NCBI GenBank assembly: GCA_018238545.1
Contig: JABCTC010000025.1
Location: 1-51,897 of the forward strand
Direction: 5' to 3'
Source of the DNA: Candidatus Heimdallarchaeota archaeon
GTDB taxonomy: Archaea; Asgardarchaeota; Heimdallarchaeia; Heimdallarchaeales; Heimdallarchaeaceae
DNA length: 51,897 nt
The position numbers and the translations under genes were made by a program. Shown one piece after another: positions 1-15,724 of this stretch (position 1 is the stretch's first letter; every line of letters begins with the position of its first letter). The notes below the pieces were generated by a model. That model searched no databases. It had not been told where the DNA came from and was given only the letters and a program-made list of their open reading frames with translations.

Positions 1-1
1 T

Positions 2-970
2 TAACAATTTTATGGGTAATCTTCCTTTCTTTTTTCTTTTAAATGGTAATGGAACAACTTTTGCTACTGGGAGACCTTTAACTAACTGAGGGACACTCTG
101 CATGAAATGGTCAAAGAGTGTGAAAACAATTATCAGCCTGACAGCTGAAAAGAGTTTTCGGGAAGGTTTCCCAATTATCGTTGCTAGTTGTTCTGCTAGT
201 ATTTTGAGACTTTTCCAACGAGAAAGTTGAGGGTTGTTAATCCACGAGGCGAGAAAAGGGATAACTACTGCTTGCTCTTTTTTTAATAGTTGGAGTTTGG
301 CTAAAAAGGCTTGTTGCCTCTTAGTCACTTGGGGAATAGTAGCAAAAGCATTGTTGTAAAAGAACAGTGCGTCATCTATCGCTTGTACTATGTCTTGTTG
401 TGTTGTAGAAGGAAGGAAAGAATTGAAATGTAAATGGTTGGGGCTATAAATTACTTTCTTTTTCTTTCCCCAATATCCATCAGCTTGTTGTCTAGTGCTG
501 GTTAAGAGGTTGATAACGTACCTTCTTTTCAGTTTCCAATAGTTCCCTAAACTGCTTTCAGTATAAGGTGACCTACCAAAGATCATCCATTCTACAAGTT
601 GTTGAGGATTCTTAACAAGAAAGTTTAGCAACCCTTGTACTTTCTGTTCCTTCTCTCTTTTCCCCTTGATTGCTATATGCAACCAATGGAAAGCACTCTC
701 TGCTATGTTAGGACTCTTCCCCACTTCTTTGCATAGTTGGCGGGTGAAGAACCCTTCCTTAGGGTTGGAACTGTATAACGTTTCTGCCTTCTTTACTATT
801 CTCGGAGAAAGGAGGGGCAGTTGCTGTTCTTCTAGCTTTCTTATCCTTCGGTTGATCTCTTCTCGTTGGTGCTGGTCTACACATTTTAGCGCCACCTGGT
901 AGCTTCGCATCACCGTCTTTGAGTGAGTGTTGGCAGCTACTTGTGCTTTCTTTGTTGCTTGTGAGACCAT
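2..970 (-). CDS. tnpB: Large TnpB-like ORF B, N-terminal ~323 aa; runs off the window start
   Basis: Not in the ORF track. ATG at 970 gives MVSQATKK...VMRSYQVALKC..QREEINRRIRKLEE..NPQQLVEWMIFGRSPYTESSLGNYWKL, collinear with and highly similar to 12902..14845. GGTGA SD-like motif upstream. Confidence 0.9.
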   Translation of the reverse strand, partial: MVSQATKKAQVAANTHSKTVMRSYQVALKCVDQHQREEINRRIRKLEEQQLPLLSPRIVKKAETLYSSNPKEGFFTRQLCKEVGKSPNIAESAFHWLHIAIKGKREKEQKVQGLLNFLVKNPQQLVEWMIFGRSPYTESSLGNYWKLKRRYVINLLTSTRQQADGYWGKKKKVIYSPNHLHFNSFLPSTTQQDIVQAIDDALFFYNNAFATIPQVTKRQQAFLAKLQLLKKEQAVVIPFLASWINNPQLSRWKSLKILAEQLATIIGKPSRKLFSAVRLIIVFTLFDHFMQSVPQLVKGLPVAKVVPLPFKRKKKGRLPIKLL

Positions 971-998
971 TGTCTTCACCTATTTATCCACAGAATGG

Positions 999-1014
999 TA
1001 TATAAACGCGAAGA
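999..1014 (-). promoter_or_regulatory. Putative TATA promoter of ORF B (copy 1)
   Basis: Minus strand TTCTTCGCG-TTTATATA ~30 nt upstream of the ATG; the equivalent TTCTTCGGG-TTTAAATA precedes copy 2. Confidence 0.55.
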
Positions 1015-1301
1015 AAAGTCAGCTAGGAGGAGTTTTTCCTCATAACAAGATTGGGTAAGTTTCTGCTCATCAGTTGACTACGGTAATTATTTTACCTTTA
1101 ACAATAGCAAATTTCATCTTAATTATGTTTCATTCAAAGGAATTTTTAAACCTATTTGAAGGAAGATACAATGCCCCTCTACAAAACCTGAAAGTTAGTT
1201 GTTTGACGTATTGAAAGTATAAAAAAGAGCAAAACAATCAATTACTCCTCAAAGAGAGTAGGGTTTAAAAATTAAATTGTTTGTTTACCTATTGTGATTA
1301 T

Positions 1302-8624: not shown

Positions 8625-9194
8625 ATGGCAGCGGGCCAAAGAAAAATATTCAAAATAACTTTGTTGGGAGACGGTGCAGTTGGAAAAACATCCTTGCGTA
8701 AAACCTATCTAGGAGAAGGATTCAAAGACGGCTACTCTATGACAATCGGAGCAGATTTTGCTGTAAAACGACTTCGAATTGACGATCAAGATTTTGTTGC
8801 TCAGATTTGGGATTTAGCAGGACAACAAAGATTCTCAGCTGTTCGTGAAGTTTATTACCGAGGAACTTCTGGTTGCCTTCTTGTTTTTGATATTTCTCGT
8901 CGTTCTAGTTTCGAAAATATCCCTTCCTGGATCGCAGAACTTCTTAAGAACAATAGCAATAGGGTTGTCCCCATTGTTTTAATTGGTAATAAAAGCGATC
9001 TTCGTGCTACCGCAAAAGATCCTATTATGCGAGAACAATCTGAAGAATATGCTCGTTCTCTATCACAATGGTCTGGTTTTTCTGTTCCTTACATTGAAAC
9101 TTCTGCAAAAACAGGAGAAAATGTCGATGAAGCTTTCAAGACATTACTAAAAAACATTGTTCTCTTCTATGAAAAACTCTATGCACAGCAATAG
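8625..9194 (+). CDS. Rab/Ras-like small GTPase
   Basis: GDGAVGKT, TIGADF, WDLAGQ, NKSD, ETSAK; no C-terminal Cys prenylation motif. Confidence 0.95.
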   Translation: MAAGQRKIFKITLLGDGAVGKTSLRKTYLGEGFKDGYSMTIGADFAVKRLRIDDQDFVAQIWDLAGQQRFSAVREVYYRGTSGCLLVFDISRRSSFENIPSWIAELLKNNSNRVVPIVLIGNKSDLRATAKDPIMREQSEEYARSLSQWSGFSVPYIETSAKTGENVDEAFKTLLKNIVLFYEKLYAQQ

Positions 9195-9216
9195 TGTTGT
9201 TTACTTTTTATTTATT

Positions 9217-10026
9217 TTATTTATCTTCACTTGTTTTTACTTTGATATTCATTGTTTCTTCATCAAAGCTGGCATCAAGAGAGACTGTGTTGTCTTCATT
9301 TATTTGTAGTATTTTCATTTTTTCTAGTTCATTGATATATCGTTTAGTCTGTAATAATGACACACCTAGAACAAATGATAGTTGAATTTGTGCAATTGCT
9401 CCCATTCTTCTTAACAAATTTATTATGTTAAATCTTGGATCAGTAGTAATCAACCTTTCTAGTACTTCTTTTTGTTTACTCCATTTCCCTTTTTCTGATA
9501 AAACAAAATCTAATTTCTCTTGCAGTTCTTTTTTCTCGGTTTCAATTGTTACTATTTGATCAGATAGTTCATAGATTAAAGACTCTCTTTCTTCTAAGAG
9601 CAATTTTAGCATTTCCTTCTCTTTTTCTATTGTCTCCTGTATATTTGCTATATTTTCTTCAGTCAACTCTCTTTTTAGAAGAGATTCTTCTATACTTGAA
9701 CTATCCCGTCTTCTTGGATATTGTGACACTGTTTGAAAACTAGATAAAAAGTTGAATAATCTAAAAAATTCTGCTTTTAATTCTGATATAATATTGTCTG
9801 AAGAAGATTTCAACATTTCATTGATATATGTTATTGATGGATTGATGTCTAATAAATTATTATTGTAATTTGGTGAACCTCTCTTTGTATCAGTTATTTG
9901 AGTTGAGTTTACCTTGCTCTTAAGTGCTTTCACTTCTTTTGTAAGTCTAACAATCTCATCAGCAATATCCATTAACTCATGGGTTTCAGTATTATCAAAA
10001 TTGTCTTCATTTTCCATGAGGATCAA
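9217..10026 (-). CDS. Coiled-coil protein with C-terminal winged helix
   Basis: Heptad-rich middle; C-term DPRFNIINLL...QLSFVLGVSL.QTKRYINELEK HTH-like. Confidence 0.65.
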   Translation of the reverse strand: MILMENEDNFDNTETHELMDIADEIVRLTKEVKALKSKVNSTQITDTKRGSPNYNNNLLDINPSITYINEMLKSSSDNIISELKAEFFRLFNFLSSFQTVSQYPRRRDSSSIEESLLKRELTEENIANIQETIEKEKEMLKLLLEERESLIYELSDQIVTIETEKKELQEKLDFVLSEKGKWSKQKEVLERLITTDPRFNIINLLRRMGAIAQIQLSFVLGVSLLQTKRYINELEKMKILQINEDNTVSLDASFDEETMNIKVKTSEDK

Positions 10027-10902
10027 CTAAATCTTTGCGGTTGACTCTATTTTGAAGCCTTCTGTTTCTGATGGGGTGATATCTAGAGTTTCACTCACAT
10101 ATGCTACACCCATTAGTTTTGTTATTGCAAAAGTATCTTTGATTCTGCTACCAACTGAACTTCTTGTAAAATAGAATATGCCTTGAGATGCGTTCATTAT
10201 AATTCTTTCTGCTACAGGGTCCAGAACGTCCTGCGGTATTAAGAAGAAGTGTACTCCACCTAGTTTTGATAAAGAAATCAAAGTGTTTTTTAGAAATGTA
10301 ATCAGAGCCGCTGCATCCTCATCAAGTCTATCTTCTTTCATCCACAGCAAATCATCGAAAACACTAAAGCATTGTTTATTTTGATTTTCTTTAACATGAA
10401 TCATTCTATCTATTATTTTTTTAGCGTAAGTTCTTCTTCTAACTTCTATTTTACCTAATTTCAATGCTGATGACATTGTTGAACTAGTCAAATCAAACAT
10501 ATTTTCAAAATACCAGTTTTTACCTTCGTATGGAGAAATGTCCCATTCATAAGCTTGGAAGGATCTTTTTACACTCTCATATGGTGTGCTACTATGAACA
10601 TAAAATATCACATTTTCTTGTGTTTTTTGTGCCCAATTTAGTAATATACGCTGAATAAATAATTTAGGGATTACAGTTTCTGAAGGGTAACTCACTAGAA
10701 TCAGTGAACCATCTGGAAGACCTTTTCGAGAGGACATTTCCATACCAAGTTTCTGGTCTAAAGTTCTAATACCAGTAAGGATTAATTCGCCTCTGACATC
10801 AACGGCATGACTTTTTTTCCCTATTCTTTCAACTCCACCTTTTGGGGTCTCTATATCCATAGAATTTACCTCATAACAATTTTGCTGATTAGAACTGCTC
10901 AA
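10027..10902 (-). CDS. KaiC/RAD55-like RecA-fold protein with degenerate Walker A
   Basis: ILTGIRTLDQKLG...GLPDGSLILV start typical of KaiC; the P-loop position reads SYPSETVIPK with no GKT. True start may be 10860. Confidence 0.75.
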   Translation of the reverse strand: MSSSNQQNCYEVNSMDIETPKGGVERIGKKSHAVDVRGELILTGIRTLDQKLGMEMSSRKGLPDGSLILVSYPSETVIPKLFIQRILLNWAQKTQENVIFYVHSSTPYESVKRSFQAYEWDISPYEGKNWYFENMFDLTSSTMSSALKLGKIEVRRRTYAKKIIDRMIHVKENQNKQCFSVFDDLLWMKEDRLDEDAAALITFLKNTLISLSKLGGVHFFLIPQDVLDPVAERIIMNASQGIFYFTRSSVGSRIKDTFAITKLMGVAYVSETLDITPSETEGFKIESTAKI

Positions 10903-11428
10903 GTTCTCTCAAAGCTAATTCCAAATCTGATATAAACTCATCTTGAACTTTCTTTTCTTCAGTTACAACTGGTTCAGGTGCAGGAGTTGGAGTAGGAGTA
11001 GGAGTAGCAGCAGTTTCTGCAGGAGTTGTGGGTTTAGCTTCAACATCTAATATATTTCGTGTTTTTTCAGCTGCCATTTTCATGGTTCTTCGTACCAAAC
11101 CTAGTTGTACACCAGTATCTGTGATAAGACACAACACTGTGCTCCCACAACTAGCAACTAAGATTAAGCCATCAGAAAATTCTGATATTATGATATCTAG
11201 TGCGGCTAATCCCACATTTTGACCCTGTTGTTCACTTGCCAGATATACAGCACTAGCTATCGCCCCAAGCGCTTCTGTTTCGAATTCATCAAAAGCAAAT
11301 CTTGAAGAATATGCAAGTGTTAGTCCAGTTTTATCGGCTAATATAACGTGGTTAATGTTAGCATCACTAGTTATTATTTCGTGCAGTATTGCATTTATTT
11401 GATCGGCGCCATACAAGAAAATCACCAA
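10889..11428 (-). CDS. Roadblock/LC7 (MglB-like) protein with Pro/Thr-rich linker and acidic tail
   Basis: VILADKTGL.LA...ALGAIAS...G.ILV...VLCLIT....QLGLV. Probable start TTG at 11416 after a GGTGA SD. Confidence 0.88.
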   Translation of the reverse strand: MVIFLYGADQINAILHEIITSDANINHVILADKTGLTLAYSSRFAFDEFETEALGAIASAVYLASEQQGQNVGLAALDIIISEFSDGLILVASCGSTVLCLITDTGVQLGLVRRTMKMAAEKTRNILDVEAKPTTPAETAATPTPTPTPAPEPVVTEEKKVQDEFISDLELALRELEQF

Positions 11429-12724: not shown

Positions 12725-12850
12725 TAATATTACTCCTTTTATAATTATAAGATACATCCATACAGTTGAATTGCTTCTTATAGGTTTTTTCTTAGATGCG
12801 CCCAAAGTAAAACAAATTTTGTTAATATTTGTTATTGTAATTTGTTTGTT

Positions 12851-12975
12851 ACACACGTTATGAAACTTGGTTAAACTTGCCAGAAGGCGTCTAACCGTCG
12901 TTTAAGTGGGTTCCCTCACGTGTGTTGAGGGGAAGAGATCGGAAGGAAGGAGAGTACCTGGGAGGGAAGAGATGT
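12851..12975 (-). ncRNA. Putative omega-RNA (reRNA) scaffold of the TnpB-like nuclease; 5' limit uncertain
   Basis: Hairpin CCCUCA/UGAGGG whose loop ACACACG is complementary to the downstream CGUGUGU (pseudoknot); intervening stem GGUUAGAC/GUUUAACC capped by GCC-UUCU-GGC. Confidence 0.72.
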
Positions 12976-14845
12976 TATGCGCAGCGTTATCATGAGTGTT
13001 GACCATTTGACCACATTTACCACAAGGAGCAGAATCATACGAACCTGAACCAGGTTGACGGAGGATAGTCCCCCCACAGTTGTGATGGACACTGCTGGTA
13101 TGGTAAGGTTTGACCGTCTCCAAACGGACATCATAACCTAATTCAAGCGAAGCTAACCAGACAGCTTTTTTGTAAATGTAAAGGTTATCAGGCATATTGT
13201 AGATGGCTTTAGCCAGTGCTCCTTTGGTACCAGTAGGGTCAACCTCCAACTCTTCGATCTTCAGAGTATGGCACTTGTTCTTCACCATCACTGCAGCGAG
13301 GAAGTGGGGTAAACGACGGGTGATCTCACGAAGTATGCGACTTCTACGAGTATAGACTCTATTGAGTTCTCCCTTGAGCTTGCAACTGCCGAGAATGTCA
13401 TGCTCTTTACGTTTGCGGAGGAAACCACGGTTAAGTTCCTTCATAACTTTCTCTAGGTGCTTGTAACGTTCAGCTAGTTTCATCAAATCCTTAGGGACTG
13501 AAACAGAGGTGTTAAACGCTACCATAAACTCTCCCAAGCGGTTGATATCCAACCCCAGCACTTGTTTCTTGCCTTTAGGAATCTTTGGGAGATAAGTATG
13601 GAGAAGTTTGTGAGAGTGGAAACAGTCATGAGCGCCTTCTAGCACCACATCTACTCGAGGTTTGAAACAGGGAGCACTGCCGCTGCTTACTTGGAAAACT
13701 TTGATTTCGGCACCATTCTTCAAATATTCCAAGACTTTGGGGGGAAAGAGAACTTGAGCAGTAAGTTTCTTCTTGCCCATTTGCGGGAAACCTAAAGTGG
13801 TTCTACCATTGTTCTTTACTTGTCTGGTCAGATCTTTTGCATTCCCTTCACGGGTGATAACATAATCTTTTTTCATTAGTAGTTTTACTGGTAATCTTCC
13901 TTGTTTTTTACGTTTGAATGGGGGAGGAACGAGTGCAGTTATAGATAGACCTTGTAATAATTGAGGGACACTCTGCATGAAATGGTCAAAGAGTGTGAAA
14001 ACTACCACCTGCCTTACGGCAGAGAAGAGTTTTCGAGTAGGCTTACCTATTAATTCTGCTAGTTCCTTGGAGAGGTTTTTGAGACTTTTCCAACGAGAAG
14101 GGTGAAAACTGTTGATCCACGAGGTGAGAAAAGGAGCAACTATATTCTGCTCTTGCTTTAAGAGCTTGAGTTTATTGAGAAACGCTTGCTGGTTCTTCGT
14201 AAGAGTAGGTAGTTGTGAGAAATTATTGGTCTGGTGAATCAGAGCATCATCGATTGCTTGCACCACATCTTGTTGCTTGTAAGTAGGTAAAGCTCCATTC
14301 AACACCAGATTATTAGAGAAATAGTAGTTCCTCTGTTTCTTCTTGCTAAAACTATCTAGTTGCATCCTAGAACTGGTCAGAAGGTTGATGACGTACCTTC
14401 TCTGTAATTTCCAATATTTCCCCAGGCTGCTTTCGGTATAAGGCGAACGACCAAAAATCATCCATTCCACCAGCTGTTGAGGGTTCTTATGCAAGAAGTT
14501 GAGCAACCCTTGCACTTTCTTCTCTTTGTCTATCTTCCCTTTCACTGCTATCTGGAGCCAGTGGTAAGCGCTCTCAGCGATGTTAGGGTTCTTCCCCACC
14601 GCTTTCCCTACTTGACGGACAAAGTAGCGTTCTTTAGGGTTAGTGCGATAGAGGTCTAAAGCTTTCTTGACCACATCTTGAATGAGAAGGTCGTGCTGCC
14701 TCTCTTCTAAATTCCTAATTCTTCGGTTGATTTCTTCTCGTTGAGAGGGTGATGCACACTTCAGCGCTACCTGATAACTCCTCATCACCTTGTCTAAGTT
14801 AATAGGGGGAGAAGTTTTAGAGGTGCTTGCTGCTTGTGTGCCCAT
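12902..14845 (-). CDS. tnpB: Large TnpB/Cas12-like RuvC protein (647 aa)
   Basis: RuvC-I VLGLD433INRLG, RuvC-II LKIE531EL, P.HTSS, Zn site HxxC..CxxC, RuvC-III NTH618D619NAAHNI; lies downstream of IS607 tnpA. Confidence 0.88.
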   Translation of the reverse strand: MGTQAASTSKTSPPINLDKVMRSYQVALKCASPSQREEINRRIRNLEERQHDLLIQDVVKKALDLYRTNPKERYFVRQVGKAVGKNPNIAESAYHWLQIAVKGKIDKEKKVQGLLNFLHKNPQQLVEWMIFGRSPYTESSLGKYWKLQRRYVINLLTSSRMQLDSFSKKKQRNYYFSNNLVLNGALPTYKQQDVVQAIDDALIHQTNNFSQLPTLTKNQQAFLNKLKLLKQEQNIVAPFLTSWINSFHPSRWKSLKNLSKELAELIGKPTRKLFSAVRQVVVFTLFDHFMQSVPQLLQGLSITALVPPPFKRKKQGRLPVKLLMKKDYVITREGNAKDLTRQVKNNGRTTLGFPQMGKKKLTAQVLFPPKVLEYLKNGAEIKVFQVSSGSAPCFKPRVDVVLEGAHDCFHSHKLLHTYLPKIPKGKKQVLGLDINRLGEFMVAFNTSVSVPKDLMKLAERYKHLEKVMKELNRGFLRKRKEHDILGSCKLKGELNRVYTRRSRILREITRRLPHFLAAVMVKNKCHTLKIEELEVDPTGTKGALAKAIYNMPDNLYIYKKAVWLASLELGYDVRLETVKPYHTSSVHHNCGGTILRQPGSGSYDSAPCGKCGQMVNTHDNAAHNISSLPGTLLPSDLFPSTHVREPT

Positions 14846-14895
14846 CTTCTACTCGTACGTATAATCCTTAAATTGCTATTTAAACCCGAAGAATC

Positions 14896-15498
14896 TCACT
14901 TGTTCGGTGGTGCTTTTCCTCTCCTCTGTCTGTGCAACCTCCCTGCAAAAGAAGTGACGAGAGCGATCATATCTTCTACTAATTTTTTCTCTGCTGCTTG
15001 TTCTTCTTGTTGATACATGGGGATAACTTCTGTATCAAACGTTTGACAAAACTGGTTGATCACCTTCGTTCCGAACCTCGCTATCCTGTCTCTATACGTA
15101 CAGATGACAGCAAAAGGTTGTTTCGTTGCTACAGTTTTTAGTAGTGCGTGTAACCCTTTTCTCTGGTCGTTCATCCCCGAAGCAATATCTGTAAAAATCT
15201 TCTCTACCTTCCACCCTTTTTGCTTAGCAAAAGACCGTAGATGTTCTTGCTGGGTTATCAGTTCTTTCTTCTGTTTTGCCCCACTTACTCTCGCATACCC
15301 TATCACTATTTGTTTGTGCTGAGTGTCGTTCTTCTCCTCCTCTTTTTCTTCTTCTCCTATCATCTGGGAGAGTTTGTATCTCCTGTGTCCTCCTCTTGTC
15401 CTCTTGCAAGGGAGGATTCTTTCTTCCTTCTCCCACCTCCTCATAGTGCTAGCTGATACTCCTTGCATGTATGCTGCTGTGCCAATTCTTGCTAACAT
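14896..15498 (-). CDS. tnpA: IS607-family serine recombinase/transposase
   Basis: MerR-type HTH (AAYMQGVSASTMRRWE..RTRGGHRRY), catalytic YARVS, DIASG, DRIARFG, LVEDMIALVTSFAGRLH. Start at ATG 15498 preferred. Confidence 0.95.
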   Translation of the reverse strand: MLARIGTAAYMQGVSASTMRRWEKEERILPCKRTRGGHRRYKLSQMIGEEEKEEEKNDTQHKQIVIGYARVSGAKQKKELITQQEHLRSFAKQKGWKVEKIFTDIASGMNDQRKGLHALLKTVATKQPFAVICTYRDRIARFGTKVINQFCQTFDTEVIPMYQQEEQAAEKKLVEDMIALVTSFAGRLHRQRRGKAPPNK

Positions 15499-15724
15499 AG
15501 TTCTAATTTTACTGCTCTTACGAAAAATTTTCTGTTTTTTGGCAAGATTGAGCAATATTTCTTTCAGCTGTTGCTTACAGTAAAATGATATTAAGAGATG
15601 ATGGCGTCCTTTTCCCGCTTTTATATCCTTTGTGTGAAGCACATCTAAGCCGTCTCAACCAGTCATTCGCCAGATAAAAATTAAGGGAAAGCATGTTAAA
15701 TTTTTCTATATTGAAAGAAAGAAG

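Follow-up and report, generated by a model that had tools for sequence, protein, structure and literature searches.

An IS607 element of a Heimdallarchaeia genome ends in a pseudoknotted omega-RNA module and carries a conserved RNA hairpin inside tnpB

The window, a stretch of 51,897 nucleotides from Candidatus Heimdallarchaeota archaeon, is contig C71 of a 3.6-Mb Heimdallarchaeia assembly of 128 contigs. On its minus strand lies an element of two genes, tnpA followed by tnpB (Table 1). The element sits between the gene for ribosomal protein S27ae and a 155-aa gene, which are adjacent to each other in relatives. The order tnpA then tnpB is also seen in distant homologues. An earlier note on this DNA had read a pseudoknotted TnpB omega-RNA at the right end of the element, and the ORF upstream of it does encode a protein of the TnpB/Cas12f fold behind an IS607 serine transposase. 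Our results show that positions 12851-12932 of the minus strand are the right end and the omega-RNA 3' module of a multicopy IS607 element. The genome holds 27 such right ends, each with a different flank.

Table 1. Features of the element, in the direction of transcription
Feature	Position	Strand	Remarks
Target motif ACTGT (family consensus ACYGT)	15577..15581	minus	Retained from the empty site; putative TAM
Left end: variable 4 nt, then conserved AACAG and CAATCTT blocks	15540..15576	minus	Presumed TnpA sites (putative binding)
tnpA, IS607 serine transposase, 200 aa, ATG at 15498	14896..15498	minus	MerR HTH and resolvase
BRE/TATA-like box ahead of tnpB	14876..14893	minus	Conserved in sequence; putative promoter
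tnpB, 647 aa	12902..14845	minus	RuvC D433, E531, H618; HxxC/CxxC zinc site
Block of suppressed synonymous change in tnpB	13810..14100	minus	Codons about 250-345
Intragenic RNA hairpin	13958..14002	minus	Arms 13996-13990 / 13974-13968; flanked by UUC and CCCUCARUUA
Pyrimidine-rich tract	12933..12975	minus	Composition conserved, sequence not
Nexus-like hairpin of omega-RNA	12912..12932	minus	Overlaps last tnpB codons; 98% paired, nearly invariant
Second stem-loop	12863..12903	minus	AAAC/GUUU helix, internal loop, 7-bp GGUUAGA/UUUAACC helix, variable cap
3' strand of 6-bp pseudoknot helix	12852..12857	minus	Pairs with 12924-12919; two-sided changes at 4 pairs
Terminal YGT, copy of target motif end (recombination core GT or YG)	12851..12853	minus	Last conserved base 12851
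Flank-derived guide	12831..12850	minus	First variable base 12850; putative length

The assignment to IS607 follows from the gene content and the junctions. TnpA is an HTH serine recombinase that matches NF033518 at 170.9 bits (cut-off 110), tnpB lies downstream of it, and a short core is found at both junctions and once in the empty site. This core is GT or YG and not the GG of characterised IS607 members, which we treated as typical of the studied members, not as defining. An IStron is not indicated, since there is no Rfam match to a group I intron and two ORFs fill the element. The BRE/TATA-like box is also retained in tnpA-less copies and in the mini-elements described below. A scan for sigma-70 promoters and terminators, of a kind unsuited to archaea, found nothing. 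No relatives were found on viral contigs.

The window holds a second copy of the family at positions 1-1084 (minus strand). It has no tnpA, its left junction reads ACCGT at 1084, and a TATA-like box lies near 1005. Its tnpB, 65% identical, is cut by the contig end and has the mid-gene hairpin at 86-124. A candidate small non-coding RNA lies immediately left of the element described here: an intergenic stretch of 69 nt (15603-15671, minus strand), closed by a GGCG/CGCC stem, is shared almost unchanged with four other species and has no Rfam match. A Rab/Ras-like small GTPase gene and a roadblock-like gene, both read from the sequence and of Asgard eukaryotic-signature types, occupy 8625-11428.

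The right boundary of the element is sharp. Among 83 distinct junctions (the right ends of this genome plus those of related loci) columns up to 12851 carry 1.4-2.0 bits of information, and those from 12850 on less than 0.3 bits. The earlier note had expected conservation to stop at about 12850 and a guide to start there, and both the 83 ends and the empty alleles place the first variable base at 12850. The AT-rich turn past the pseudoknot strand, also remarked on at the time, is present, but it is just host flank, with a GC content of 20% here and 10-45% in other copies.

At the other end of the element, the left junction reads ACYGT, and the last two or three bases of this motif are repeated at the right end. 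The Y of the left motif (position -3) equals the Y of the right end in all 13 complete copies; in a larger set a few left junctions deviate from this match (L050, L070, L090 and C102). Where empty alleles could be taken from sister genomes or a paralogue, the retention of five bases was the best or joint best solution (C71, C21, C82, C4 and C90), with exact ACTGT junctions at C82 and C90. The empty alleles of the window's own copy (C71) come from diverged species and are about one base off in length. C43 and C106 have no usable empty allele, and their left flanks mismatch, probably through deletion or rearrangement. Since the empty alleles keep ACYGT, the motif belongs to the target, and its last bases are copied at the right end of the element. 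As the element is of IS607 type, these terminal bases are a duplicate of the recombination core and remain part of the scaffold. In characterised IS607 systems the scaffold finishes on the core dinucleotide and requires the pseudoknot (PMC10711439; 10.1101/2023.11.20.567912), and the TAM is the insertion motif. By the same rule the TAM here is likely to be ACTGT, and the guide would be read from 12850 onward; its length of about 16-20 nt is assumed from other TnpBs.

At up to two mismatches, the genome contains no self-target of the guide of the window copy. A mini-element on another contig (G000:C90) has a near-perfect target of its own guide in a paralogous gene on G000:C25, with the motif intact and one mismatch in the first 14 guide bases.

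Within the module, the strings and minus-strand coordinates that had been reported are all correct. The arms of the nexus-like hairpin are CCCUCA (12931-12926) and UGAGGG (12918-12913), and its loop ACACACG (12925-12919) is the complement of 12857-12851. Only 58 of 20,000 random 146-nt windows of the genome (0.3%) contain a hairpin with such a loop complement, and the fold z-score of the single window sequence is -1.77. On one sequence alone, the structure is only moderately unusual. Comparison of copies says more. Over 55 distinct ends, 92.7% of cells pair across five helices and 12 pairs show two-sided changes, four in the pseudoknot and five in the second stem-loop; covariation of the stems had been predicted. 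This level of pairing was reached in 0 of 500 shuffles, and slid controls pair at 21-44%. Shuffling is a mild test when sequences are related, and more weight therefore goes to how widely the changes are spread: four pairs of the pseudoknot are among those changed on both sides, and the same architecture recurs, written in different letters, in lineages with 30-48% protein identity.

Some details of the earlier drawing have to be revised. The pairing between loop and complement covaries, but its core is 6 bp and not 7. A12925-U12851 fails to pair in 12 of the 55 ends, so the helix is 6 bp with a connector of one nucleotide. A one-base connector is the usual pseudoknot geometry. The 8-bp stem (12896-12889 / 12876-12869) is present with one G.U pair, but its innermost pair is broken in 17 of the 55 ends, and the GCC/GGC cap that was drawn on top of it is not conserved (only 55% paired). 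One helix had been missed: AAAC (12903-12900) pairs with GUUU (12866-12863), is invariant in the 55 ends and reads AAGC/GCUU in distant relatives. The window copy has two stem-loops before the guide, and relatives and some mini-elements have a third between them. Both copies of the 10-mer described for the pyrimidine tract are there (12973-12964 and 12939-12930), but the first copy is not conserved whereas pyrimidine richness is, and we rejected the 10-mer as a functional repeat. In mini-elements the tract pairs with an upstream purine segment. An overlap of the scaffold with the 3' end of the ORF had been expected as well. The nexus-like hairpin does extend into the gene, but synonymous sites at codons 600-625, just upstream of the right end, are unconstrained (diversity 0.97 of the mean), and hence a long contiguous overlap is not supported. 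Rfam searches at gathering and E-value thresholds gave no match for the window region or the mini-elements. The pseudoknot and the guide junction are ordinary for a TnpB, and the RNA is of a known kind.

One could argue that the right end is only a recognition site for TnpA in the DNA and that the RNA structure is incidental. TnpA would keep IS ends conserved in any case, many columns do not vary and carry no information on pairing, and there is a loose resemblance between the AAACGACGG block of the right end and the AAGCAACAG block of the left end. We consider this explanation largely refuted and its truth highly improbable. The 12 pairs with two-sided changes, the shuffles and the far lower slid controls speak against it, and the architecture outlasts full sequence turnover and the loss of tnpA. 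Furthermore, whenever the terminal bases change, so does the loop, although it lies 60 nt inside the end. Since the last bases act at once as recombination core, as pseudoknot strand and as mirror of the TAM, a change in the target motif goes with changes in the right end and the loop (ACTGT/GUGU/ACAC versus ACCGT/GCGU/GCAC).

For the TnpB protein, the AlphaFold model (pLDDT 85.9) has its best structural matches in Cas12f and TnpB, including that of the IS607 element ISFba1 (8iaz), with low overall TM-scores of 0.2-0.35. The three RuvC residues are strictly conserved in close homologues (D433 in 121/121, E531 in 116/117 and H618 in 112/113). H618 aligns to the RuvC-III Asp of Cas12f, and distant homologues have His at this position in 78 of 81 cases. 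The protein thus departs from the canonical D-E-D of TnpB by a His in place of the RuvC-III Asp. D619, which could be a shifted catalytic Asp, was rejected in this role, its column being variable.

Could the omega-RNA be real and the TnpB not cut? Such a TldR-like protein would be a guided DNA binder that blocks re-insertion by TnpA or represses transcription. The replacement of Asp by His throughout the family, the lack of conservation of D619 and a score of 30 bits against the guided_TnpB model, far below the cut-off of 100 bits, point in this direction. Nevertheless, we think it quite improbable. The strict conservation of D433, E531 and H618 is unlike decay, and the guides differ in every copy, which leaves no fixed regulatory target. 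TldRs have a fixed guide, lost mobility and a degenerate RuvC; our element has 27 differing flanks and an invariant D and E. Clades with the same Asp-to-His change in RuvC-III (RIIIr clades, Ser-6) have been catalogued and predicted to be active (Altae-Tran 2023, PMC10691335). Some of the RuvC-III-rearranged branches are archaeal and linked to serine recombinases (PMC10691335). Unlike RIIIr-4, which is without a zinc finger (PMC10691335), the family here keeps the HxxC/CxxC site.

The family also includes proteins of 800-1784 aa (P0144, P0148, P0156, P0174, P0180; L154:3001-6684). A member of 1227 aa has an IS607-type tnpA fragment nearby and retains the mid-gene hairpin.

A further RNA structure lies in the middle of tnpB. 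Among 53 tnpB copies, synonymous diversity in the block of Table 1 is 0.69 of the mean (0/5000 permutations), and at codons 280-297 it is 0.46 (p=0.0004). When folding is compared to that of synonymous shuffles, structure along the entire ORF peaks at codon 288 in the close and the distant set separately, and the lowest folding z-score falls on the hairpin (-2.2 for 6 close sequences, profile sd 0.54; -1.5 for 15 distant ones, sd 0.28). The stems show two-sided changes as the protein diverges, out to homologues of 682 aa and 1227 aa. The structure peak, the two-sided stem changes and the synonymous freeze mean that the hairpin 13996-13968 is real and selected at the RNA level. The pattern UUCRCA-hairpin-UGUCCCUCAG was found in 23 of 82 genomes, nearly always in tnpB or in the mini-element form, and a reversed control pattern was found once; CCCUCAG is missing from distant lineages. 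In the literature searched, the coverage of which was incomplete, we found no report of an intragenic TnpB hairpin, of its reuse in mini-elements or of this family's RNA.

Another block of tnpB with frozen synonymous sites, codons 313-341 (window about 13910-13820), has less structure than expected. Weaker synonymous dips lie at codons 393-397, 545-549 and 593-601.

The mini-elements are protein-less copies of 355-400 bp, found in this genome and in two genera of relatives. What they have is the two ends of the element, the TATA-like box and the same 3' module, together with a structured 5' domain. The 5' domain has multiple helices and covaries strongly (its hairpin is 97% paired), and hence is under selection as RNA. 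Its core is formed by the mid-gene motif with a different stem, at a distance of 188 nt from the right end instead of about 1110 nt in full elements. Common to tnpB and mini-elements are only the hairpin and about 13 flanking bases: a covariance model of the mini-element domain did not detect tnpB, and an HMM gave a weak match to a core of 14-17 nt only. There are also deletion derivatives without the mid-gene hairpin (L062, L073 and C51). Since copies that encode no protein keep the hairpin, a role in translation is less plausible than one in partnership with the omega-RNA. On the strength of these sequence comparisons, we lean toward the view that it works with the omega-RNA in some way, as a second RNA element recognised by TnpB.

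One mini-element lineage (L028-L030, L047-L053) has an apparent second pseudoknot in its 5' domain, where columns 102-106 pair with 132-136 across a nested helix.

A stronger version of this idea is a scaffold of two pieces about 1.1 kb apart, in which a tracr-like RNA is cut from the middle of the tnpB message and joins the short pseudoknotted right-end RNA. Alternatively, a single RNA of more than 1.1 kb could have its middle looped out, and the mini-elements would be natural single-guide fusions. The distribution of constraint fits, with a conserved 3' module of only about 82 nt, unconstrained codons 600-625 and a constrained block at codons 250-345, as does the retention of the motif in a multi-helix covarying domain by elements that make no protein. 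In size the TnpB also exceeds ordinary TnpB by about 250 aa, and its fold comes closest to that of tracrRNA-using Cas12f, whose two-part guide architecture is the model for this reading. TranC, too, has a split tracrRNA:crRNA guide. Unlike in Cas12f and TranC, no CRISPR array is seen here, the guide is derived from the flank, and the candidate 5' piece lies inside the nuclease ORF. Against two pieces, a scan for long-range helices found no covarying pair between the mid-gene block and the right end, and the sequence shared by tnpB and mini-elements is short. Conserved long-range helices were no commoner than in an antisense control (11 versus 12). The complements CCCUCA/UGAGGG and AUGAAA/UUUCAU are invariant, and a ranking of duplexes did not single them out above background. 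Moreover, the 3' module could be enough by itself, given that processed TnpB scaffolds of only 79 nt have been described (PMC10278001). We therefore hold the two-piece scaffold only tentatively, as possible but rather doubtful.

Suppose instead that CCCUCA downstream of the mid-gene hairpin invades the UGAGGG arm of the right end. The precursor would then be inactive until TnpB trims the mid-gene motif away, and the motif would be a brake in cis. A precedent is a region of the AmaTnpB message (PMC10278001), which is likewise a segment inside tnpB that may pair with the scaffold. The 7-bp complement 13968-13962 / 12918-12912 is retained in at least 92% of 28 copies, C-to-U variants in mini-elements preserve G.U pairs, and the co-folded and separate states have near-equal energies (-35.3 versus -35.0). 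However, the inhibitory AmaTnpB region is known from one enzyme and lies near RuvC-II, whereas here a family-wide covarying hairpin lies upstream of RuvC-I and is also kept by protein-less copies. In distant lineages, whose arms differ, it is the hairpin and not the CCCUCA tail that persists, and an element that makes no protein would gain little from preserving an inhibitor through compensatory changes. Hence, a brake seems unlikely to us.

The best overall explanation is, in all likelihood, the 3' module of an IS607 omega-RNA, to which we would add, with less confidence, a second hairpin recognised by TnpB. TnpA-type insertion is just 3' of ACYGT, and 12850 onward is host flank that differs in each copy. 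The pseudoknot, formed by the loop and the last bases before the junction, encloses the second stem-loop. By analogy with IS607 systems that have been characterised, transcription would start from the box at 14893-14876 and continue through tnpB into the flank, and TnpB would bind the pseudoknot and take the flank as its guide. It could then attack the empty allele (ACTGT plus flank) left by excision, which would favour the retention or recovery of the element. The hairpin 13996-13968 may act in the loading or trimming of the precursor, or it may be a lasting 5' piece of the scaffold. Mini-elements would have deleted the coding sequence between the hairpin and the 3' module and would borrow TnpB in trans.

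Much of this resembles ISXfa1 (PMC10711439) and CboIStron (10.1101/2023.11.20.567912). In these systems, too, a serine TnpA is followed by TnpB, there is no large target duplication, a short core is found at both ends, and the nexus loop pairs with the 3' end of the scaffold. The scaffold ends on the core, the guide comes from the flank, and the TAM, predicted in our case, is the insertion motif. In contrast to their GG core, the motif here is ACYGT with a GT (or YG) core. The module is only about 82 nt long, and the middle stem-loop is absent in this lineage and present in relatives. The 647-aa D-E-H TnpB, the conserved mid-gene hairpin and the lack of an intron are further differences. ISFba1 with its RAGATH-18 RNA (PMC11061315) also combines an IS607 TnpB with a pseudoknotted right-end RNA, but that RNA is 187 nt long and lies wholly downstream of the ORF, and the TAMs are AGGAG or GAGGG; our RNA has no Rfam match.

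The locus is a complete and testable design for a large His-type Asgard TnpB, with a predicted TAM (ACYGT) and an exact guide start, and the transcript of the mini-elements is a ready compact RNA for the family. Whether a TnpB with the Asp-to-His change in RuvC-III cuts DNA can be tested directly with it. With a family-wide hairpin in the middle of the ORF, codon-optimised constructs supplied with the right-end RNA alone could fail. If the hairpin is a second piece of the scaffold, then there would be a route to split guides at the level of the transposon, without a CRISPR array.

Relatives without tnpA, mostly at 38-48% identity, adjoin tRNA genes (L036:1332-1414 and 3471; L039:3520; L040:3460; L043:3500; L116; L031, i.e., G000:C68; and L005). 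The sequence that follows the pseudoknot in L036, L039, L040 and L043 agrees with the nearby tRNA gene in 12-13 of 14 bases. Possibly, the guides of these relatives are fixed, target tRNA genes and guard the integration sites.
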